64,000 nt of DNA from a virus, in the IMG/VR virus record IMGVR_UViG_3300046370_000202. One strand, 5' to 3'. Position 1 is the first letter of the stretch. The number at the start of each line of letters is the position of its first letter. Positions 23,773-62,605 of this stretch are shown here, one piece after another. The translations under genes and the position numbers were made by a program. The notes beneath the pieces are model-generated. The model had not been told where the DNA came from. It saw nothing but the letters and a program-made list of their open reading frames with translations, and did no database searches.

Positions 23773-24993
23773 TTATCTACGAGCTGAATCCCAACCCTTT
23801 AATATATCGGACGAAAAGTTGTTGTATGAAAATTCCATACGGTCAACCAATTTCACCGCGTCACCACCAAGTGTATCAATTGCAACATATCCTTCTTCGC
23901 CAGTCACTTTGTAACCATTAGAAGTTTTCACGAAAGTATCAATCGATTTAAGTTTGTCCAAACTATTTATAAGTTTTAATTTCACTAATACGATCAATTT
24001 TTGCAACTCAAACATTTTTACTAGGTTTGCCTTGTTTGTGGCAGAGAAAAACTCCATCTCATCCTTCATTTTGGCAATCCAATTGTCCTTACCTCGCTGA
24101 GATTTCTTACTTGCAATCTCTTTTGCGTAGTAGGCTTGTCTGTTACTTATCAGTCCGTTAACGTGCTTTCTTGAGTCCGGAAGTACTGTACCCGCACGAA
24201 CGAATGAGTTATTGTATGTCTCGATTGACTGTGCGAACTCGGGGTTGTCCGCGACAGTTTTCAAGGTAGTTGCAGAAGTCTGTTTGAATAGACGACCTAT
24301 CTGTGTTAGTAAATCATTGACCGATTTGGTTTCGCGTTCAGTCATTGTAGCTTTAGTCGCATCTTTTAACATCGCATCTTGTGACCATACGTTGCGTGAC
24401 TTTCGCAACTTACTGACATCAACACCGTAGTCTGCTTTCATGTTCTCAAAAGATGTACCCGTGTATGTTGTGTGCCATACGATACCGATCTTAGCGGCAC
24501 GTACTTCTTTCGCTTGATCATAGGGAACTGCGTATGCGATTGTGTTTGGGTGAAATACGCTGTACTTCTGACCGTCAATGGTCTTAGTAGTGACATCTCC
24601 ATCACCGAATAAAAAGTCGCCTTGAATGACGCCTTTGATGCCTAGAGCTGGTAAATACTTGAGCGCGTCTTTCAACTTAGAGTTTAGATCGCCCGACGTA
24701 TCAGCATCAATGTCTGCGTCGGTCTTATAGACCTTTGGGTTCTTGTTGAAGATGCCTTTCTTAGCAACGAAGAACTCGCCGTCTGAAGGATCGGTACCAC
24801 AGAAGATCGCAGGCGCACCGTCCCACTTTACAGAGATGCGACCTTTTGATGTGCCAGATAACATATCGCGTAGTCCACGCAAGGCATTGATTGCCTGACG
24901 CGTCCCGTCAACTCCACCGTACAGGACCTTGTCCTCGATGTGAGTCATATGCGTATTCTTTTGTTCTGTGATAAAGTTACTGAAGTTTTCCAT
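23773..24993 (-). CDS. ligase-like nucleotidyltransferase (DUF6267-like)
   Basis: KWDG (motif I), QGD (III), EGYV (IV), VKLV (V); start re-called at MENFSNFITE. Confidence 0.65.
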   Translation of the reverse strand: MENFSNFITEQKNTHMTHIEDKVLYGGVDGTRQAINALRGLRDMLSGTSKGRISVKWDGAPAIFCGTDPSDGEFFVAKKGIFNKNPKVYKTDADIDADTSGDLNSKLKDALKYLPALGIKGVIQGDFLFGDGDVTTKTIDGQKYSVFHPNTIAYAVPYDQAKEVRAAKIGIVWHTTYTGTSFENMKADYGVDVSKLRKSRNVWSQDAMLKDATKATMTERETKSVNDLLTQIGRLFKQTSATTLKTVADNPEFAQSIETYNNSFVRAGTVLPDSRKHVNGLISNRQAYYAKEIASKKSQRGKDNWIAKMKDEMEFFSATNKANLVKMFELQKLIVLVKLKLINSLDKLKSIDTFVKTSNGYKVTGEEGYVAIDTLGGDAVKLVDRMEFSYNNFSSDILKGWDSARR

Positions 24994-24994
24994 A

Positions 24995-26398
24995 TTAGTA
25001 TAGTTTCGCAAATGGTCCAAATAGATCGCCCTTTTTCTGACCAAGATATGAGATATCAGATAAAAGGTCGCTTACTTTATTAATGTCACGTATCGTAAAT
25101 ATCTCATTAAGCAAATCCAACTGCATCAACTTACTATTCGCAACAGCTCTTTCATTGTCGTTCTTCGAACTGTCAAACACTGTTCGCATGTTATCAATAA
25201 ATTCTTTTTCTGACTTGATATTCATTTCAACACGACCTGTACGATTAAGTGATTTAAATCGCCCGACGTGAACGTCCTGTTCTTTCAAAAAATCTTCTAG
25301 ACTTTGGGGATATTTTCTCCAAGATCTCCACCGATCATAATTTTTGACACCATAAGATCTAAGTGCCGCAGAGACCATGTCTAGTGGCGCTTTACCTAGT
25401 CTCGCGGCCCGCGCACTAACATCGGTACCTTCAATCTTTAAGTTGTTGAATCCACGCGAGTTCTGTCTTATCTGAAAGTTGATGGTTACCTTGCTCGACG
25501 CAATCTGAAAAGACGATTCTGTGTTAACAAAAGAAGTGCCTGACAGAGACAGATTTAATTTTGATTCTTGAAAATCAAACCGATATTCATCGCCGTCAAA
25601 TAGGTCTTCTCCATCAAAGTTTACCAGTTCCCATCTTGCAGTTTTACCGGACATCTTCTTCAAAGAAATGCCTACGACTTGACGACTGTTGAACATATCT
25701 TGAAGAATTGCATTAAACTCTGGAAGCGATGTTGAGTTATCCCTAATTTTTGAGTCTAGGTCTCGTTTCGCCTTTGATAAATCTGCGACCAACCAAATGT
25801 CAGCCGGGTTCCACGTATCTTTTTGTGTTATGCCATACAACTCTTTACAAGTGTCTGTGATGTAATCCATGAACCCGCCATCACGACTGTAGTGACCATA
25901 CTGTGTATTGCCAACTTTCTGTTGTGTCAACTTCTGTTGTTCAAAGAAAACATTCTCCCAGTATTCGTCCATGGCAGGATATTCTTTCAAGAGATCTTCA
26001 CGATATAGTTTTAAAAACGTTTCTTTATTAGTATATCCATTTTTCTCAATACCTTTCTGAATCGCTAACAAACTGGCTCGTTCTTGCATCGCAGTGGTCT
26101 TACCGTCTGGTTTACCACTTTTTCCGCCCATTCCACTAAACGGCGACTTGTCTATTTCGGTCCACTTATATCCATTGAATATAGGCGCATAGTTATTTCC
26201 AGACTTTGCCGAAACATTGACCTGAGTTATGTTTTGTTTCTCTACAGCAGACACAAACTTTTTGACTAAGTCTGTCTGATTGATTACTTGAGAAACATTG
26301 CCCTTAAACTTAACAGGTTCACCATTAGTGATTTTGTCAGCAAGCATGTTTAAGTATGGCTTAGAAAACTTGAAGTCCCCGCCAGCAAGCATTGCCAT
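24995..26398 (-). CDS. putative PD-(D/E)XK-type endonuclease
   Basis: QE...WNPADIW...GISLKK motif. Confidence 0.55.
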   Translation of the reverse strand: MAMLAGGDFKFSKPYLNMLADKITNGEPVKFKGNVSQVINQTDLVKKFVSAVEKQNITQVNVSAKSGNNYAPIFNGYKWTEIDKSPFSGMGGKSGKPDGKTTAMQERASLLAIQKGIEKNGYTNKETFLKLYREDLLKEYPAMDEYWENVFFEQQKLTQQKVGNTQYGHYSRDGGFMDYITDTCKELYGITQKDTWNPADIWLVADLSKAKRDLDSKIRDNSTSLPEFNAILQDMFNSRQVVGISLKKMSGKTARWELVNFDGEDLFDGDEYRFDFQESKLNLSLSGTSFVNTESSFQIASSKVTINFQIRQNSRGFNNLKIEGTDVSARAARLGKAPLDMVSAALRSYGVKNYDRWRSWRKYPQSLEDFLKEQDVHVGRFKSLNRTGRVEMNIKSEKEFIDNMRTVFDSSKNDNERAVANSKLMQLDLLNEIFTIRDINKVSDLLSDISYLGQKKGDLFGPFAKLY

Positions 26399-26427: not shown

Positions 26428-26455
26428 AGTATAACAGACACTATTTATATGTCAA
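26428..26455 (-). promoter_or_regulatory. nested sigma70 (TTGACA...TATACT) and late (TATAAATA) promoters
   Basis: TATAAATA at 26442-26449 lies in the spacer of the sigma70-like promoter. Confidence 0.55.
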
Positions 26456-27122
26456 GGGCATTTCCAGAATTTTCTGCATTATATTGCGCAATTGTGTCGC
26501 GGAGAGGACGAACCCAATTGTCTCTATGTTCAATAAAGACTTGTGGTTCGTGGTTGTCTACAGAAATGATGGTGACTAGTTGGGTGATGGGCCTTCCCGT
26601 CCGTTCTTCCCACATAATAGCGTAGGCGGACTCTTGCATGAAATAGTTTTTGACCCATTCAAGTCGTTTTGGTTTAAGTGAGGTTTTAAAGTCGATGATA
26701 GACAACTTACCATCAAACTCAGCAACACAGTCCACACGACCAGCCACACCCAGATGATTGGAGTAGAGAGGTGCTTCCTGTGCAAATACTCTGCCAATGC
26801 GGCTATCGAGAATGGGCTGAAGATCAAGGAAACTACTAATAATATCTGGAGTATATCCATTTTTGAAACTCTCTTCATTGTTGATGTATTTCTCAACCAC
26901 TTCATGGACTGCAGTACCGCGTGTAGATGCGCGATGAGAAATGCGGTTTGCTTCTTCGTTACCGACTTTTTTACGCCACTTTGCGATAGACTCGCGTGAA
27001 AGTATAGAGAGTACGGTGGTTATAGAGGGAAGGTTGATACCTTCGGGCGTTTTATACTCACGGCGACCATTGCGGTTCTCCGTTTTCATTTCAGTCAATT
27101 CAATAGGTACATGTTCAAACAT
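26445..27122 (-). CDS. PD-(D/E)XK exonuclease
   Basis: PSITTVL, RGT.VH, AGRVD...IIDFKTS, Q..AYA. Confidence 0.85.
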   Translation of the reverse strand: MFEHVPIELTEMKTENRNGRREYKTPEGINLPSITTVLSILSRESIAKWRKKVGNEEANRISHRASTRGTAVHEVVEKYINNEESFKNGYTPDIISSFLDLQPILDSRIGRVFAQEAPLYSNHLGVAGRVDCVAEFDGKLSIIDFKTSLKPKRLEWVKNYFMQESAYAIMWEERTGRPITQLVTIISVDNHEPQVFIEHRDNWVRPLRDTIAQYNAENSGNALDI

Positions 27123-27443: not shown

Positions 27444-27519
27444 TGGTGGAGCTAGAGGGAGTCGAACCCACGACCTCTTGAATGCAAATCAAGCGCTCTC
27501 CCAACTGAGCTATAGCCCC
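27444..27519 (-). tRNA. tRNA-Ala(TGC)
   Basis: Cloverleaf, G3:U70, GTTCGA, CCA. Confidence 0.95.
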
Positions 27520-27529
27520 CTTATCTGTC

Positions 27530-27537
27530 TATTTATA
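27530..27537 (-). promoter_or_regulatory. late promoter TATAAATA
   Basis: Exact consensus just upstream of tRNA-Ala. Confidence 0.65.
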
Positions 27538-27549
27538 CCACATTAATAT

Positions 27550-27617
27550 TGGAGCGGAGCGTAGGAACTTCCCCTACCTCAGCGAGGGGTACTCGCCGAC
27601 TCAATACTGAACTCCGC
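27550..27617 (-). ncRNA. non-canonical tRNA-Gly-like RNA, copy 1
   Basis: GCGGAGT/GCTCCGC-T-CCA acceptor; 8-bp stem with TACCC loop; GTAGG/CCTAC T-stem. Confidence 0.75.
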
Positions 27618-27623
27618 AAAACT

Positions 27624-29036
27624 TTAGTCGCACCCAAGTTCTTGACGCGACACTTCATCGTTGTTGATAGGACAGTTGCCACTTGGTAACGACTCTGGCA
27701 CATATCGCATCAACTCTGGATCATGCAAACCGTTCTCAAGGAACGCAACAAGGTTTGCAATCTCATCTTCGGTCAAGTCTAACGGCGTGAACCGATAGTC
27801 AAGGTCATACGTCTCCACTTGTGGGTGTTGGGGAACCGCATCAACTTTATATCGCACGACATCCTCTACACTAGAGAACGACGCACCGTGACCGAATACA
27901 GTAGTATCTATAAGGTTGTAAAGAGGCGGAACTTTGAACGCAAACTTCTCCATCTCATCACCAGTGAATCCACCACGACCCTCTCTAGTCGCATCGTTGA
28001 CTTCACCGACCGTGTCTTCCCAGATATCTAAATCGTGGAAACCGACAGTCATAAACACTTCGTCTGCCATCGCACCAACGGGAGATGACAACGCAGGTCC
28101 GTTATGACACGCATAACAGTTACCCTTACCGAAGAACACTTCCGCACCAGCGACTTCAGATTCAGTCATCGCAGTTTCGTCACCTTTCAAGTATGCTTGG
28201 AAGGGTGCTTGATTCGCAAGAATAGTCCGTTCGTATGCGGCGATCGCTAGTGCAGTTGCCTCTAACATATCGTCGGGTTCTGCAACACCGTAGGCAGCTT
28301 CAAACATCTCACGATAAGTTTCGTTAGTGCGCAGGATAGAATCATCTGTGTCACCCTGACGATGCACACCTAGACCCGCAACTGCTTGTGTCTCTAGACC
28401 AGCAAAGTTGCGTAGGTTTGCTTCTTTCGGAGTACCTTCTGTGAAGTGACGATCGGGATCAATACCAACATTGACATTACCCGCAATCACATTACCTAAC
28501 TGACCATTCCACAACATCACTTCTTGGAATGCCGTGTTGAGTACAGTGGGTGTTGCAACAGGTTGCACATCGATGTCTTCGGGATTGACACCCTCAGCGA
28601 TCATGCGATGATCAAAACCGACACCACCTTCACCTATACCCTGACGAATACCAGACTTGAATCCGTTTTGGGCATTGTGACATGACGCGCACGAGAATGT
28701 ACCTTCACTGGACGCAATGTCGCCTTCAGTGATACCAGTCTCATGATAGATTAACTTACCTAGTGCAACTTTCTCTGCAGTAATAGGATTACTTGGGTCT
28801 TGCGGAATGTTATCGAAGTCATCACTGTCGGGAAGGATGTATTCTTCGTATGAACCTGTCGTTGATGTGGAGTCAAGTAACGTGAGTAGATTGTCACGTG
28901 CCTCGACTGCTGGATCAACAGGTGTTACAGTTGGGGGAGTCACGACCACAGGGTCGGGGGCGGATGCGTTATCTGCTCCGCCAGAACATGCACTCAGGAG
29001 TGCCGTAGACACAGCTACAGTTAGTAGTTTCTTCAT
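27624..29036 (-). CDS. di-haem cytochrome c peroxidase/MauG-like lipoprotein
   Basis: Lipobox LLSAC, CASCH and CYACH, WNG, FKVP.L.N, GH.A. Confidence 0.85.
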   Translation of the reverse strand: MKKLLTVAVSTALLSACSGGADNASAPDPVVVTPPTVTPVDPAVEARDNLLTLLDSTSTTGSYEEYILPDSDDFDNIPQDPSNPITAEKVALGKLIYHETGITEGDIASSEGTFSCASCHNAQNGFKSGIRQGIGEGGVGFDHRMIAEGVNPEDIDVQPVATPTVLNTAFQEVMLWNGQLGNVIAGNVNVGIDPDRHFTEGTPKEANLRNFAGLETQAVAGLGVHRQGDTDDSILRTNETYREMFEAAYGVAEPDDMLEATALAIAAYERTILANQAPFQAYLKGDETAMTESEVAGAEVFFGKGNCYACHNGPALSSPVGAMADEVFMTVGFHDLDIWEDTVGEVNDATREGRGGFTGDEMEKFAFKVPPLYNLIDTTVFGHGASFSSVEDVVRYKVDAVPQHPQVETYDLDYRFTPLDLTEDEIANLVAFLENGLHDPELMRYVPESLPSGNCPINNDEVSRQELGCD

Positions 29037-29079
29037 AATATAAGAGCCTCTCAATACTCTATTTCAAGTTTCGATAAGA

Positions 29080-29119: not shown

Positions 29120-29806
29120 TTAACTATTTTTGACGCGTTTGATCGCTTGCTTCTCTACTTCAATCCAACGCTTGGCCTTCGCGCCGTGTGGTTTGTCCGT
29201 AAACTTCTTCGCATCACGATATGCAGTTAACGTTTCTTTCTCGTAGTTCTTACCTTCAGAGTTATCAACTACCAAGAAGTTCTCTTTACCAAACATGCGT
29301 TGGAACTTGCCGACGTTGCGCTGAACTGCTTTCCAATACTCAGTAACACCTTTCGCGCCTAGAGTACGCGCACGTTTTGCATCACGGTTGATAGCAGTAT
29401 CAAGGTCTGTGTTTACGAAAATCATCGCAACATCGTAACCTAATTCTTTAACCTTCTTTGCTTGCGCGGCAATCTTGTCTGGATCTTTACCAGTACCGTC
29501 TACGACAAGACCAAGGCGTCCCTTCAGATAACGTTCCTCTTTTTTGCCAGTAATCTTCTTTGCCTTACCACGAAGTTCTTGACCCTTCGGAGAGAAGATG
29601 TTGTCTGGAGTCATCTCCATATCAACCTTCTTCATGGCAGCTTCAAACGCGTCATCGGAGTTGACAACTTTGTAACCCATAGAGGTCAAACCAGTTTTGC
29701 CGACGATGAATGACTTACCAGAGCCTGGCCCACCCGCAAGGAAGATCGCCTTGAAGATTGCTGGATCGTTGACACCTTCGTCTAGGAATGTTTTAAAAGA
29801 TTTCAT
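29120..29806 (-). CDS. P-loop kinase (zeta-toxin/AAA_33/PNK-like)
   Basis: GGPGSGKS, NSDD, VVDGTG, R...R.R lid; MKSFKTFLDE N-terminus. Confidence 0.8.
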   Translation of the reverse strand: MKSFKTFLDEGVNDPAIFKAIFLAGGPGSGKSFIVGKTGLTSMGYKVVNSDDAFEAAMKKVDMEMTPDNIFSPKGQELRGKAKKITGKKEERYLKGRLGLVVDGTGKDPDKIAAQAKKVKELGYDVAMIFVNTDLDTAINRDAKRARTLGAKGVTEYWKAVQRNVGKFQRMFGKENFLVVDNSEGKNYEKETLTAYRDAKKFTDKPHGAKAKRWIEVEKQAIKRVKNS

Positions 29807-36867: not shown

Positions 36868-38109
36868 TTAAAACTGGTCTTCTTCGGTCGAACCCGTCAT
36901 AGCTGCGGTAGACGTAGAACCCAATGTAGTTGTGATGGCATCGAAGTAACCGACACCCACTTCACGTTGGTGTTTTGCTCCTGTGTATCCACGCGACTCT
37001 GCGGCAAACTCTGCTTCTTGTAACAACGAGTATGCGTACATACCTTCGTCTTTGTATCGGTTTGCGAAATCAAAGACAGAGTAGTTAGTCTGGTGGAATC
37101 CTGCAAGTGTGATAAACTGGAACTTGAATCCCATCTTACCCAACTCACGTTGAAAATCTTTTAGTTCTTGATCGCCTGGAATTGACTTGCGCCAGTTGAA
37201 TGACGGTGAACAGTTGTATGCCAACATTGCGTCGGGGACTGCACCTTTGACTGCGTCAGCGAAACGCTTCGCATCCTTCAAGTCGGGTGTCGATGTTTCA
37301 CACCAAACGAGGTCTGCGTATTCTGCGTATGCCTGACCACGCACACAACCGAACTCTAGTCCTCTGCCCTCTTCGAGCATATAGAACCCTTCTTGTGTGC
37401 GACATTGAATAGATCCCGCAGTACCCTGCGAGACTCTCTTGATGAATGGTTTGTCGATGTCTGAGATGTTGCTAGAGATTAACTTAGCAGACTCAGCATC
37501 GGTACGAGCAATAACGACTGTATCAGTGCCAGCAACGTCACTAGCAAGGCGAGCGGCATTAAGGTTGCGTATAGCTTGACTAGTCGGTATGAGAACCTTT
37601 CCTCCCAAGTGTCCGCACTTCTTCTCGGCAGCAACTTGGTCTTCAAAGTGAACAGCGGCAGCACCTGCTTCGATAAGATTTCTTGCAAGTTCATACGCAT
37701 TTAGAACTCCTCCGAATCCTGCTTCAGCATCGGCAATAATAGGGGCAAATTCAAACCCGTTTCCAGTTTCCAGATATTCGATTTGGTCTTGGCGTCTAAA
37801 TGCATTATTGATGCTACGCACAACGTTAGGAACGCTATCAACAGCATATAACGACTGATCTGGATAAACTTCGCCATGAGAGTTGGCCGACGCAGCCACT
37901 TGCCATCCCGAAAGATATATCGCTTTGAGTCCTGCTTTAACGTGTTGTACTGCTTGTTGTCCATTATATGCTCCAAACGTGTTGATGTACTCGTTTTCTT
38001 CAAATAACTTTCGAAGTTTTGATGCGCCCATTTGCGCGAGGGTGTGGTCGATTTGAACTGTGCCCTGCAAACGAGTTACGTCTTCGGGCGAGTAGTTTCT
38101 CTTTTTCAT
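36868..38109 (-). CDS. aceA: isocitrate lyase
   Basis: YLSGWQVA, ADAEAGFGG, KKCGHLGGK, AYNCSPSFNW, HQREVG. Confidence 0.97.
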   Translation of the reverse strand: MKKRNYSPEDVTRLQGTVQIDHTLAQMGASKLRKLFEENEYINTFGAYNGQQAVQHVKAGLKAIYLSGWQVAASANSHGEVYPDQSLYAVDSVPNVVRSINNAFRRQDQIEYLETGNGFEFAPIIADAEAGFGGVLNAYELARNLIEAGAAAVHFEDQVAAEKKCGHLGGKVLIPTSQAIRNLNAARLASDVAGTDTVVIARTDAESAKLISSNISDIDKPFIKRVSQGTAGSIQCRTQEGFYMLEEGRGLEFGCVRGQAYAEYADLVWCETSTPDLKDAKRFADAVKGAVPDAMLAYNCSPSFNWRKSIPGDQELKDFQRELGKMGFKFQFITLAGFHQTNYSVFDFANRYKDEGMYAYSLLQEAEFAAESRGYTGAKHQREVGVGYFDAITTTLGSTSTAAMTGSTEEDQF

Positions 38110-59060: not shown

Positions 59061-60785
59061 TCAAGTGGTCTCTCTCATACGACTGAAATTTTTATCCTTT
59101 ACGAACGACAACTTTCGTTCGAAGTGGGCATCTTCAAGCTCAGTCTTGTGTGAGATTACAAACACATTGGTGTCTTCTTTTAATGTGTCAATAATCTTCA
59201 TAAGGTTGTCGACACCCTCCCCATCGAGAGACGAATCAAAAGTCTCATCAAGGATCAACAGGTTAGTCGACACAGAATTTTTCATCTTGGCAATCTGTCG
59301 CCAAGTGAACAAAAGAGATAGGTCAATACGTTGCTTCTCCCCTTCTGAGAAAGAATCGTAAGAGAAGGTGTCGCGGTAACGAGACCGGATAGTCTCAGTG
59401 AAACTATCATCCAACTCAAAGTGAACAAAGAAGTCTAGGATTTGCAAGTACTTGTTAGTCAGTTCGTTGATGACCGGAATATACTGACGAATGATTTTAG
59501 TCTTAATACCCGTATCACGCAACAACTCACTGGCAATGCGGTTATAAGATGAACGCTCGGTCAGTTTAAATTTGTTGTCTGTGAGATCGTGCAACTCAGA
59601 ATCTAGTTCAGTAAGGTCTGCGTTTGCTTGTCCCATGTCTCCATCACTGTTAGACATCTGAGAAAGGTCAGACTGAATCTTTTGGACATTTTGAGTCAAT
59701 CGTGAAACCAGTTGCATATTGTTATTCATAACATTCTGCTTGTGGGCTAATTCCGACATCTCAGACTCTAGTCTCTCAATGTTTTCTTGGTACTCTAGTA
59801 GTTGTTTATCAGCCTCTGACATTAAACCCTTGAGTTCTTTGGCGCGATCAGTCGCAGCGGACTTTTTAGATTGTCGCAACTCATCACCAATGTCTTGATC
59901 ACAGGTCGGGCAGTGTTCATGTTGATCAAAGAACTTTGCGTCTTTAACCACAGATTTTACCTGAGTATCAAACTGTGTACGATACTTTTCTAGTTTTTGT
60001 TTATTGGTACGGATTTTGCACAGTTCATCTTGCACAGAAGGTAACAAATTATTGACGGTCTCTGACAGTTCTGCCGTCGCTTCGTTGAGTGTAGCGATAT
60101 CGTCATTAAGACCCCGAATCTCTGACTCTTTCTCTTTACGTTGTTGCGTATTGATAGCAGTCAGATCACGAATGTATTTCTTCTGTGCGTTGATCTTGGT
60201 CTTTACAACTTCTATAGAATGGTTGTTGTTCTCGAGCTCGCCTTTGAGGAGAGAGGTTTTCTCCTTGAGTATCACATTCATTTTAGAAAATATGTTAATA
60301 TCAAGAAGGTCTTCTATCACGTCACGCCGAGAGGTTGAGTTGAGTTGCATGAACGGGATAAACGACGACGAGCCGAGAACAACAATTTGGTGGAAACTCT
60401 TGTGAGACATTTGTAAGATGTTCTTCTCAAGAATCTCTTGATACTCTCGTGAGTGAGAACTCTGGTTGATCATAGTACCATCTTTCCAGATTTCAAACTT
60501 CGCGGGTTTAATACCACGCACGATACGGTATCCAATACCGTTGACAGTAAAGGTCACTTCCGACAAACAATCTTTATTGTTGATTGTGTTGATTAACTGG
60601 TTCTTAGTAATCTTACGATGTGCCTTACCGAACAACGCAAACGACAGTGCGTCTAGCATTGTGGACTTACCCGCACCGTTCTCACCGACAATGAGATTGG
60701 TCGAGCAGTCAAGGAAATTAATTTCGTTAAAATAGTTACCCGTCGAAAGAAAGTTCTTCCAACGCAATGTTTCAAATCTAATCAT
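59061..60785 (-). CDS. 46: SbcC/Rad50-like recombination ATPase gp46
   Basis: G.NGAGKST, CPTC hook, FSEGEK, LDE. Confidence 0.95.
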   Translation of the reverse strand: MIRFETLRWKNFLSTGNYFNEINFLDCSTNLIVGENGAGKSTMLDALSFALFGKAHRKITKNQLINTINNKDCLSEVTFTVNGIGYRIVRGIKPAKFEIWKDGTMINQSSHSREYQEILEKNILQMSHKSFHQIVVLGSSSFIPFMQLNSTSRRDVIEDLLDINIFSKMNVILKEKTSLLKGELENNNHSIEVVKTKINAQKKYIRDLTAINTQQRKEKESEIRGLNDDIATLNEATAELSETVNNLLPSVQDELCKIRTNKQKLEKYRTQFDTQVKSVVKDAKFFDQHEHCPTCDQDIGDELRQSKKSAATDRAKELKGLMSEADKQLLEYQENIERLESEMSELAHKQNVMNNNMQLVSRLTQNVQKIQSDLSQMSNSDGDMGQANADLTELDSELHDLTDNKFKLTERSSYNRIASELLRDTGIKTKIIRQYIPVINELTNKYLQILDFFVHFELDDSFTETIRSRYRDTFSYDSFSEGEKQRIDLSLLFTWRQIAKMKNSVSTNLLILDETFDSSLDGEGVDNLMKIIDTLKEDTNVFVISHKTELEDAHFERKLSFVKDKNFSRMRETT

Positions 60786-61840
60786 GCAATTTCTACGGCC
60801 TGCGCCTCTACCATCAATTCGGACACAACACTTTTAATGCGGTCCTTGTCTAAATCAGTTTCGACTTCTTGTATGTAATTATAGATTAAAGTTTCCGTGT
60901 CGTCAACCCTTAAATCTTCGTCTGAGACATTTTCACCACGAAACTCACGGAAGTCTTCGGCAATCTTCAACTCATGAACTTTCTGTTGTTGAATGCGTTC
61001 TACATATCGTTCAAACTTCTGTAGGTCGGATCGGTTGGACACTATCAGTTTAACAAACTTGCCGTCAAGATATGATAAGTCTTCGAAATACTTAACCGTG
61101 TCCTCATCATAATAGATCTTGTGGAAGATAGTCACGTCATTCTGCACAGGCGTCAGTTCACGCGTTTCTGTGTCATAGATGTGGAAATACTTGGGGTCGT
61201 GCGCATCGTTCCAGAAGAACTCCATCTGCGCGCCTAGGTAGTGTATATTACCCTTGCTTGACTTGGTGTGAAAGTGTCCGGACAGAACTGTCTCAAACTT
61301 CTGCAGTGGTTTGGGGTCCATACCCTCTTTACAAACCAGACCCTTGTCCATCTCAAACCCTGCGAGCTCGAAGTGGCCACCGATCACATCGGCGCCACAG
61401 TTGTCCAAGAAAGTCATTACCTCTTTCTCATTCTCTGGACAGATCCAAGGCACAAGACCAAACTTAACACCGTCGTACTCACGAACGATCGGGTCCATAA
61501 GAATATCGACCTCGTTCATGTAATGACCCATCAACTCTTTGAGGGAGTTCAAACCATTGGTGTTTTTGTAATACACATCGTGGTTGCCGGGAATGATGTC
61601 CATGTGAATATTATAGTCACGCAGCTTGTCTAAAAAGATTCTACGATTGTGACTAAGCGCCTTGAGGTTGACCGTCTTACGATTATCGTAATAGTCACCT
61701 AAGTGAAGGATCTGCGAGATGTTATTCTCAAGCAGATAAGGAAAGAACACCTCAACGTAGAAACGTTCTTGGTAATCCATAAAAATTTCAGATGAATTGC
61801 GACACCCGCAGTGGGTGTCATTCAATATAGCGATCTTCAT
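60782..61840 (-). CDS. 47: SbcD/Mre11-like nuclease gp47
   Basis: DTH, GD, GNHD, SGHFH. Confidence 0.95.
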   Translation of the reverse strand: MKIAILNDTHCGCRNSSEIFMDYQERFYVEVFFPYLLENNISQILHLGDYYDNRKTVNLKALSHNRRIFLDKLRDYNIHMDIIPGNHDVYYKNTNGLNSLKELMGHYMNEVDILMDPIVREYDGVKFGLVPWICPENEKEVMTFLDNCGADVIGGHFELAGFEMDKGLVCKEGMDPKPLQKFETVLSGHFHTKSSKGNIHYLGAQMEFFWNDAHDPKYFHIYDTETRELTPVQNDVTIFHKIYYDEDTVKYFEDLSYLDGKFVKLIVSNRSDLQKFERYVERIQQQKVHELKIAEDFREFRGENVSDEDLRVDDTETLIYNYIQEVETDLDKDRIKSVVSELMVEAQAVEIA

Positions 61841-61854
61841 AAACTCTCAGTAAT

Positions 61855-61923
61855 TGGAGCGGGATGTAGGGATTTCACCTACTACAGTAAGGGGTACTCA
61901 CTGTCTCCATAACGAACTCCCGC
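61855..61923 (-). ncRNA. non-canonical tRNA-Gly-like RNA, copy 2
   Basis: GCGGGA/TCCCGC-T-CCA; 8-bp stem with TACCC loop; GTAGG/CCTAC. Confidence 0.75.
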
Positions 61924-61950
61924 ATTAAACTTTTACTAATTTAGACACAC

Positions 61951-61979
61951 ATTATACTATAGTATAGGAGTCATGTCAA
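61951..61979 (-). promoter_or_regulatory. sigma70 promoter
   Basis: TTGACA-N17-TATAAT upstream of the tRNA-like RNA and gene 47. Confidence 0.8.
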
Positions 61980-61980
61980 G

Positions 61981-62577
61981 TTAATCTTCCATCCATTCTG
62001 ATAAGTCTGAGTCTACATTTACCGCACGACGGCGACGTTGTTTTTCTTCCTTCACATACTCTTTGAACTCATGATCTGCAGACTTTACTGCGTCAATGCG
62101 CATACGCAAAGAGTCAATGAAAGGAGATGCTTGTTGAGCTGTATATCCATCTTCCTCAAGTGATTCAGCCAAGAAGTCCATAACATCCGCTTCGGCAATA
62201 TACTTGAGTTTGATGTTCTGTTGTTTTTTCTCTTTCTCTATTCTACGAAGAAACGCGAACCACGAGATCTGCGTAAAGTAAGCGAACGCATTTGGTTTGC
62301 CACTACGAGTTGCGGCCTCTATATTATAGTTCTCAATCGCTTTGAGCATATTCTCAACAGCGTCCATAACCATTTCTTCACGATAAGTGTATCGCACAAA
62401 GTTCCCCTTGTGAGAGAGACCTTCTGCAATCTTAAGAAAACAAGATGCGATATAATCCGGAACAACAGGTACGGATTTTTCACTAGACTTGGCTTCTCGG
62501 ACTTCAGTGCAGTACTCCACCACTGCATTTGAGAAATCTCTATTACTTACGTAATGTGGTTTTTCTTTTGGTTTCAT
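61981..62577 (-). CDS. 55: late sigma factor gp55
   Basis: HYV.N, IAEGLS...NF..Y, N.FAYFTQI...AF.RRI..EK. Confidence 0.93.
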   Translation of the reverse strand: MKPKEKPHYVSNRDFSNAVVEYCTEVREAKSSEKSVPVVPDYIASCFLKIAEGLSHKGNFVRYTYREEMVMDAVENMLKAIENYNIEAATRSGKPNAFAYFTQISWFAFLRRIEKEKKQQNIKLKYIAEADVMDFLAESLEEDGYTAQQASPFIDSLRMRIDAVKSADHEFKEYVKEEKQRRRRAVNVDSDLSEWMED

Positions 62578-62605
62578 AATATACAACTCGATTAATTAAG
62601 GTGAC

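Follow-up and report, generated by a model that had tools for sequence, protein, structure and literature searches.

The window (by which we mean the whole 64,000-nucleotide stretch of DNA analysed) belongs to an uncultured marine T4-like, Kyanoviridae-like phage, whose gp47 is about 43% identical to that of Pelagibacter phage HTVC008M. On its minus strand, the gene for the late sigma factor is followed by an early promoter, a tRNA-Gly-like element (copy 2), a short spacer and the gene for a recombination endonuclease subunit, and another member of the same RNA family (copy 1) lies in the tRNA region (Table 1). Copy 2, 69 nt long, folds into a cloverleaf with 5′ GCGGGAG and 3′ UCCA, and the minus strand of 61855-61923 agrees with its sequence as transcribed in the original prediction. 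The acceptor stem has 6 bp and a G.A mismatch, the D hairpin 3 bp and a 6-nt loop without GG, and the anticodon stem 8 bp, which close a 5-nt loop (UACCC); the variable region is a single base, the T stem (GUAGG/CCUAC, loop UGAAAUC) has 5 bp, and U73 and CCA are encoded in the DNA. Folds and pair counts give the window form as a whole the four arms of a tRNA cloverleaf, with an acceptor stem of 6-7 bp, a T stem of 5 bp, U73 and CCA.

Table 1. Features of the gene 55-47 region and of the copy 1 region (positions within the window).
Feature	Position	Strand	Remarks or basis
Gene 55, late sigma factor	61981..62586	-	1 nt separates its stop codon from the -35 box
Perfect sigma-70-type early promoter, TTGACA-N17-TATAAT	61951..61979	-	TTGACA 61979-61974, TATAAT 61956-61951, spacer 17 nt; gene 47 promoter, kept in relatives with and without the element
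Stretch from -10 box to G1, 27 nt	61924..61950	-	Sequence; G1 = 61923
Copy 2 of the remodelled tRNA-Gly-like RNA	61855..61923	-	Sequence, fold, covariance models R1 and R2, pair counts
Copy 2, acceptor 5′ strand	61923-61917	-	
Copy 2, reduced D arm	61916-61905	-	
Copy 2, long stem 5′ strand	61904-61897	-	
Copy 2, loop UACCC	61896-61892	-	C35 and C36 = 61894-61893
Copy 2, long stem 3′ strand	61891-61884	-	
Copy 2, T stem	61882-61878 and 61870-61866	-	
Copy 2, T loop UGAAAUC	61877-61871	-	
Copy 2, acceptor 3′ strand	61865-61859	-	U73 = 61858; CCA = 61857-61855
A/U-rich spacer, CCA to gene 47 ATG, 14 nt	61841..61854	-	With GAGAG ribosome-binding site, 61848-61844
Gene 47, SbcD/Mre11-like recombination endonuclease subunit	60782..61840	-	ATG at 61840
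Copy 1, same RNA family, 68 nt	27550..27617	-	Begins 6 nt past the stop codon of di-haem cytochrome c peroxidase
Canonical tRNA-Ala(UGC), downstream of copy 1	27444..27519	-	

The original prediction placed the element less than 30 nt downstream of a perfect TTGACA-N17-TATAAT, which holds (G1 lies 27 nt past the -10 box), and also took this to be the element's own consensus promoter, which does not. We compared 80 related viral contigs (gp47 identity 72-100%) over the region 5′ of gene 47. The same TTGACA-N17-TATAAT stands directly after gene 55 in nearly all of them, most of which have no element and a leader of only about 30 nt before the gene 47 ATG; only about a dozen contigs have the element at this place, 3′ of the promoter and 5′ of the ATG. 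Its distribution is patchy relative to gp47 identity, as one contig with a 99% identical gp47 lacks it, and it is missing from the gene 47 locus of C48C1, the closest GenBank phage. Judged from these sequences, the promoter is the stereotyped early promoter of gene 47 and not the element's own, and because it is present in relatives without the element, the latter was inserted into an existing gene 47 early leader in one sub-lineage. Absence from relatives, which had been named as evidence against the element, is thus real at the gene 47 locus in most relatives, C48C1 included, but does not extend to the family, which is widespread. The window contains nine perfect TTGACA-N17-TATAAT sequences, eight of them on the minus (gene) strand, where fewer than one would be expected. 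This nine-copy early-promoter cassette is reminiscent of the mobile early-promoter motifs that have reportedly been described in T4-type phages.

From the geometry of the promoter, about 20 nt of the stretch between the -10 box and G1 would be transcribed as a 5′ leader, presumably removed by RNase P, and a 3′ cut in the A/U-rich spacer would free both the copy 2 RNA and a gene 47 mRNA with a short leader. Early co-transcription of gene 47 (and 46) with copy 2 can fairly be inferred. Within gene 47, about 30 nt from its start, a short GC hairpin is followed by a T run (minus strand, 61789-61808, CGGGTGTC...). This hairpin, with which Rfam echoes of atoC and StyR-143 coincide, is probably just coding sequence, and weak matches to ToxI and other Rfam families near copy 2 were dismissed as noise.

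Copy 1 lies 29 nt upstream of tRNA-Ala, and in relatives a canonical tRNA-Gly(GCC) is found between the element and tRNA-Ala. ARAGORN and Rfam identify ten ordinary tRNAs in the window, among which are neither copy 1 nor copy 2. Copies 1 and 2 have diverged: in the 8-bp long stem five of eight pairs differ and all eight still pair, with one G-U in each copy, which bears out the earlier description of this stem. That description also had acceptor pair A5-U becoming G5-C. Pair 5 does change in this way, but the change is wider, in that pairs 5-68 and 6-67 swap (A-U/G-C to G-C/A-U), 7-66 becomes a G.A mismatch, and copy 2 has gained one base in the acceptor 5′ strand, to which three substitutions in the 3′ strand correspond. 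Similarly, GAGUACCCCU, said to be invariant, is so between the two window copies, but family-wide only C35 and C36 are. A T4-type late promoter (TATAAATA, minus strand, within 27520-27549) separates copy 1 from tRNA-Ala; since it precedes tRNA-Ala, this tRNA may also be made late, and copy 1 sits on the cytochrome c peroxidase transcript.

A canonical tRNA was counted as detected if its RF00005 score reached the curated threshold (29 bits) or if ARAGORN called it. At the gathering threshold the Rfam tRNA model matches neither window copy, Rfam searches over 61700-62100 with E up to 10 give no tRNA match, and ARAGORN in bacterial, relaxed and mitochondrial modes makes no correct call on either copy. 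A blastn search with the element against 50,697 GenBank phage records returned nothing, and its flanks match only Phage C48C1 in GenBank, which is without the element. A 21-base pattern has no match in 185,579 prokaryote species genomes, which makes an integration-site or host-derived origin unlikely, and a pattern that did not constrain the T arm retrieved no window-type variant with another T stem. Our literature searches, which covered open-access papers, found no description of this tRNA-Gly-like family.

The original prediction ascribed the departures from a normal tRNA to selection rather than decay, and compensatory changes, the many variants and sharp conservation boundaries bear this out. 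Fold z-scores against shuffles are -3.3 (copy 2) and -2.7. A covariance model trained on copy-2 variants alone recovers copy 1 with 62.8 bits (E = 6e-17) and, in the rest of the 64 kb, only faint resemblances to the acceptor and T arms of genuine tRNAs. In IMG/VR and metagenomes, searches by pattern and by model yielded 17 distinct window-type variants from contigs of uncultured marine T4-like phages, in whose alignment 91.8% of cells pair, as against 42-54% with slid partners. Ten of the 23 pairs are altered on both sides, and in the long stem six of eight covary, including the loop-closing pair (G-C to A-U and back). Homology between copies ends no more than 2-4 nt from G1 and from CCA, so that the conserved unit corresponds exactly to the predicted mature RNA, and in some relatives a canonical intrinsic terminator directly follows the element on its 3′ side, which marks those copies as independent, stand-alone RNA genes. 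Taken at the level of sequence, the two elements of the window are likely to be functional genes of a phage-specific tRNA lineage with glycine identity, whose products would be cut from longer transcripts.

The family extends beyond the window form. With covariance model R2, one distant match each was obtained in HTVC008M and Mosig, both phages of Pelagibacter, and a pattern based on these two finds a 74-nt form in more than 120 viral contigs (42 distinct variants). In HTVC008M, the element (KC465899 91140-91213) coincides with no GenBank feature, is called as tRNA-Gly(ACC) by ARAGORN and lies 14 nt upstream of the S21 gene, the same spacing as from copy 2 to gene 47; a published table lists this phage with 0 tRNAs (PMC7029224). 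The tRNA-Gly(ACC)-like element of Mosig (MT647606 7779-7852) is overlain by a 96-nt ‘hypothetical protein’ CDS (Mosig_000011, MT647606.1 7774-7869; locus L143 2275-2370); a TTGACA-N17-TATATT ends 8 nt before its G1, and gene 45 begins 25 nt past its CCA.

The 74-nt form is a cloverleaf of normal length, with a 7-nt anticodon loop (UU-NCC-AA, containing ACC, UCC or GCC), a D loop with one G instead of GG, and a T loop N-G-C-R-N-U-A. It differs from the neighbouring canonical tRNA-Gly(UCC) chiefly by G18->A, U55->G and a weaker T stem, and hence in both partners (G18 and U55) of one tertiary pair in the tRNA corner. With the Rfam tRNA model the HTVC008M element scores 49.5 bits, other members score 40-52 bits and the Mosig type has no score. 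The window form, which keeps G55, has been altered further, in that the 8-9 linker is missing, the D stem has 3 bp, the anticodon stem extends to 8 bp and position 56 is A. The two forms are linked by a model match of about 31-36 bits and share derived characters, namely G55, the loss of GG, a weak 51-63 pair and, in some members, an identical T stem. The window form is therefore probably related to the 74-nt form, the alternative being an independent derivation from tRNA-Gly. The lineage itself appears to derive from tRNA-Gly, with the 74-nt form only a few substitutions away from its canonical neighbour and some members at 40-52 bits on the Rfam tRNA model.

The element often has a canonical tRNA-Gly as its neighbour, and in several cases the two share their anticodon: a 151-kb contig, for instance, has GCC/GCC separated by 5 nt, and UCC/UCC is found at a distance of 9 nt in a second contig and of about 3 kb in a third. 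Its retention next to a canonical tRNA-Gly with the same anticodon argues for a distinct job for the odd tRNA. In about half of the 74-nt variants (L139, L144, L148, L150, L159, L167 and others) a TTGAC[AT]-N17-TAnnnT ends about 8 nt before G1, so that the tRNA would start at or near the transcription start, with little or no RNase P trimming and a 5′ triphosphate. Some carriers of the 74-nt form additionally encode two-piece (permuted) tmRNAs (L216 2888-3284, L227 9554-9972 and L235 4291-4631; compare the report on phage Melnitz).

Glycine identity is kept throughout the family. The bacterial GlyRS identity set comprises G1-C72, C2-G71, G3-C70, U73, C35 and C36 (PMC7826273), and it is invariant in both window copies, in 17 of 17 window-type variants and in 42 of 42 variants of the 74-nt form; G4-C69 and CCA are likewise invariant in all 59 variants. 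In the same 59 variants A, G and U all occur at position 34, A or G occasionally at position 33, and A or C at position 37. This is the pattern expected if GlyRS must recognise the RNA while reading on the ribosome matters less. Because every reported GlyRS element is kept, the window RNAs are most likely charged with glycine.

By comparison, the corner nucleotides G18, G19, U54, U55 and C56 are not conserved. Window-form T loops read UGAAAUC, GGAAGUU or UGAAACU and the D loops GUUAUG or AGUAUU, without GG; across the family, the D-loop GG is lost or cut to one G, and every member has G55 for U55 (UGA or GGA in the window form, NGC in the 74-nt form). G55 is shared by the staphylococcal non-proteogenic tRNA-Gly, whose T loop has UGC/UGU and not UUC and which binds neither EF-Tu nor programmed ribosomes (PMC7826273). 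We calculated EF-Tu affinities from additive values for the T-stem pairs 49-65, 50-64 and 51-63 (PMC3239215); these are predictions, not measurements, and amount to -9.4 kcal/mol for all window-type variants and to a mean of -9.1 kcal/mol for the 74-nt form (n = 39, range -8.0 to -10.0). Bacterial tRNA-Gly has class means of -10.8 to -11.0 kcal/mol, and the staphylococcal cell-wall tRNA-Gly was flagged as an outlier at -9.5 kcal/mol (PMC3239215). In the same additive model the canonical phage tRNA-Gly neighbour is itself predicted at only -10.0 kcal/mol. The weak 51-63 pair is retained over many different, compensated T stems.

We tentatively read both copies as strongly derived, phage-specific tRNA-Gly, paralogues that by analogy may have a specialised role apart from normal decoding, whether by donating glycine or by standing in, charged, for tRNA-Gly; we favour this reading with some reserve. 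In the model we propose, copy 2 would be transcribed from the early gene 47 promoter as the leader of the 47-46 mRNA and excised by host enzymes, with RNase P cutting at G1 and an endonuclease, followed by trimming, acting past the encoded CCA. The product would be a 69-nt L-shaped RNA that is charged with glycine and kept off EF-Tu and the ribosome by G55, the lack of G18G19, the reduced D arm, the 8-bp stem with its 5-nt loop and the weak 51-63 pair. This proposal of an RNA held outside decoding builds on the observation that the same kind of changes keep the staphylococcal non-proteogenic tRNA-Gly from EF-Tu and the ribosome. A more specific version, which we regard as rather doubtful, is that of a dedicated non-proteogenic Gly-tRNA of marine T4-like phages, including phages of SAR11, that feeds a tRNA-dependent glycyl transfer during infection or acts as a charged decoy and so protects the tRNA-Gly pool against a Gly-tRNA-targeting host defence.

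The family could instead comprise genuine decoding tRNA-Gly with an unusual body, in which A34-C35-C36 reads GGU, and perhaps all GGN, while the rebuilt corner and loop evade an activity against ordinary tRNA-Gly, for instance a host nuclease that attacks tRNA or the turnover of tRNAs in infected cells. We consider this somewhat less likely but a serious contender, and several observations speak for it and against a non-proteogenic role. The window anticodon ACC is Watson-Crick complementary to GGU, and GGT is the commonest glycine codon of the phage (48% in 44 long ORFs), whose other tRNAs likewise correspond to its most used codons. A canonical tRNA-Gly, which in relatives adjoins the element, is missing from the 64-kb window, and the element appears to be the only tRNA of HTVC008M. 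Members occur in tRNA clusters, and the 74-nt relatives, some of which pass the Rfam tRNA threshold, keep the canonical 7-nt loop UU-NCC-AA with U33, A37 and an isoacceptor-like choice of ACC, UCC or GCC. Moreover, the known transferase families sought, FemAB (PF02388), Acetyltransf_6 (PF13480) and Leu/Phe-transferase (PF03588), are absent from all five carrier records searched (HTVC008M, Mosig and three large carrier contigs). With regard to the body, D stem and anticodon stem together (3+8) stack to near the normal tRNA length, and a 32-38 pair capable of Watson-Crick pairing also occurs in the canonical neighbour (U32-A38).

The anticodon loop of the window form weighs against a decoder. 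The 5-nt loop is closed by a G-C/A-U pair that covaries as a true pair and leaves five loop bases; if it were opened, the loop would read G-U-A-C-C-C-C, with C37. This C37 is found in most window-type variants, and in two window-type variants U33 is replaced by A or G. In addition, G55, the absence of G18G19 and the weak 51-63 pair are conserved over dozens of different stems, and copies with the same anticodon adjoining a canonical tRNA-Gly would be redundant for decoding. Reading of a quadruplet codon was considered separately and rejected: the loop is 5-7 nt, the run of C is not conserved (UACCC-U and UACCA variants), and the window genes 46, 47 and 55 are intact ORFs.

An uncharged RNA that acts by its shape, either as a mimic or decoy of tRNA-Gly (for a defence nuclease, a Gly-tRNA toxin or GlyRS) or in cis as a t-element-like processing or stability signal, appears improbable. 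The element does lie repeatedly inside mRNAs, 14 nt before gene 47 in the window, 14 nt before S21 in HTVC008M and 25 nt before gene 45 in Mosig, and copy 1 sits 6 nt past a stop codon. Early genes follow it at a distance of 14-27 nt, and roughly half of the 74-nt variants are at a predicted transcription start, where, given a promoter ending some 8 nt before G1, the RNA would form the very 5′ end of an early mRNA. Yet a pure processing signal needs no conserved C35, C36, U73 or encoded CCA, all of which are invariant, and some copies stand alone with a terminator of their own. What lies 3′ of the element varies between gene 47, gene 45, S21, other tRNAs and a terminator, so that there is no common cis target. 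Processing of the 47-46 mRNA, which the original prediction had suggested, is possible as a side effect. Finally, a decaying tRNA-Gly pseudogene or a chance fold, which could be invoked because tRNA finders reject the element and most relatives lack it at the gene 47 locus, is effectively excluded, since changes are compensatory, identity elements are invariant over the 17 and 42 distinct variants, one genome carries two diverged copies, and conservation stops precisely at the ends of the RNA.

The closest parallel to the specialised Gly-tRNA that we favour is provided by staphylococcal NP1-NP3 and S. epidermidis tRNA-Gly Ia/Ib, which are the glycine donors for peptidoglycan bridge synthesis by FemXAB (PMC7826273, PMC3239215). 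Both groups combine glycine identity elements with G55, an altered D loop and a weak predicted EF-Tu affinity (-9.4 for the window form and -9.5 for the staphylococcal tRNA), and each occurs together with a normal tRNA-Gly that has an identical anticodon, in the case of the phages in relatives of the window. In contrast to the staphylococcal tRNAs, the RNAs described here are encoded by marine T4-like phages, the cultured carriers of which infect Pelagibacter, no Fem-type transferase was found in the five carrier records, and the window form is much more heavily remodelled (D stem of 3 bp, 8-9 linker lost, anticodon stem of 8 bp, A at position 56). The likeness implies no common descent.

With canonical phage tRNA-Gly (GCC or UCC), often located only 5-9 nt away, the odd tRNA shares the GCGG acceptor start, U73, the encoded CCA and much of the T stem. 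It differs in the loss of G18G19 and U55(C56) and in its weaker T stem and, in the window form, which ARAGORN and RF00005 miss, in the rebuilt D and anticodon arms. Mitochondrial tRNAs lacking the D arm, such as metazoan mt tRNA-Ser(AGY), resemble the phage RNA in that the D arm is reduced or absent, the anticodon stem is lengthened and the T loop departs from the canonical one, but the phage RNA retains a 3-bp D hairpin and would act in a bacterial host with no known specialised EF-Tu. The tRNA regions of T4 and T5 encode stable RNAs of unknown function, which are likewise tRNA-shaped and next to mRNAs or tRNA genes; the phage family described here differs in keeping the full identity set and an encoded CCA. 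Plant mitochondrial t-elements (PMC1920247) are tRNA-shaped RNAs by mRNAs or tRNA genes too, presumably cut by tRNA-processing enzymes, and again it is the full amino-acid identity set and the encoded CCA that set the phage family apart.

Phage tRNA genes are usually explained by codon supply, whereas here a whole glycine tRNA lineage has been rebuilt in the direction of known non-translational tRNAs, that is, of the only well-studied tRNAs that work outside translation. The family is present in abundant ocean phages, with two cultured carriers, and has been missed by routine annotation, as is evident from the 0 tRNAs given for HTVC008M (PMC7029224) and the spurious CDS in Mosig. If the RNAs are non-proteogenic, they would be the first viral example and would point to a tRNA-dependent reaction or a counter-defence; if they decode, bacterial translation would tolerate a far more remodelled tRNA body than assumed.

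Four further minus-strand genes near the tRNA region of the window encode a DUF6267 protein (23773-25044), for which no solved relative was found by sequence and to which PHROGs assigns no function, a 467-aa protein of unassigned family (PHROG 1462; 24995-26398), a PD-(D/E)XK exonuclease (26445-27122) and an AAA_33/zeta-toxin-like P-loop kinase (29120-29806) with weak similarity to polynucleotide kinase; together they could possibly form an RNA-repair set. The same strand also carries auxiliary metabolic genes that are unusual for a T4-like phage, encoding a di-haem cytochrome c peroxidase/MauG-like lipoprotein (27624-29054) and an isocitrate lyase (36868-38109).
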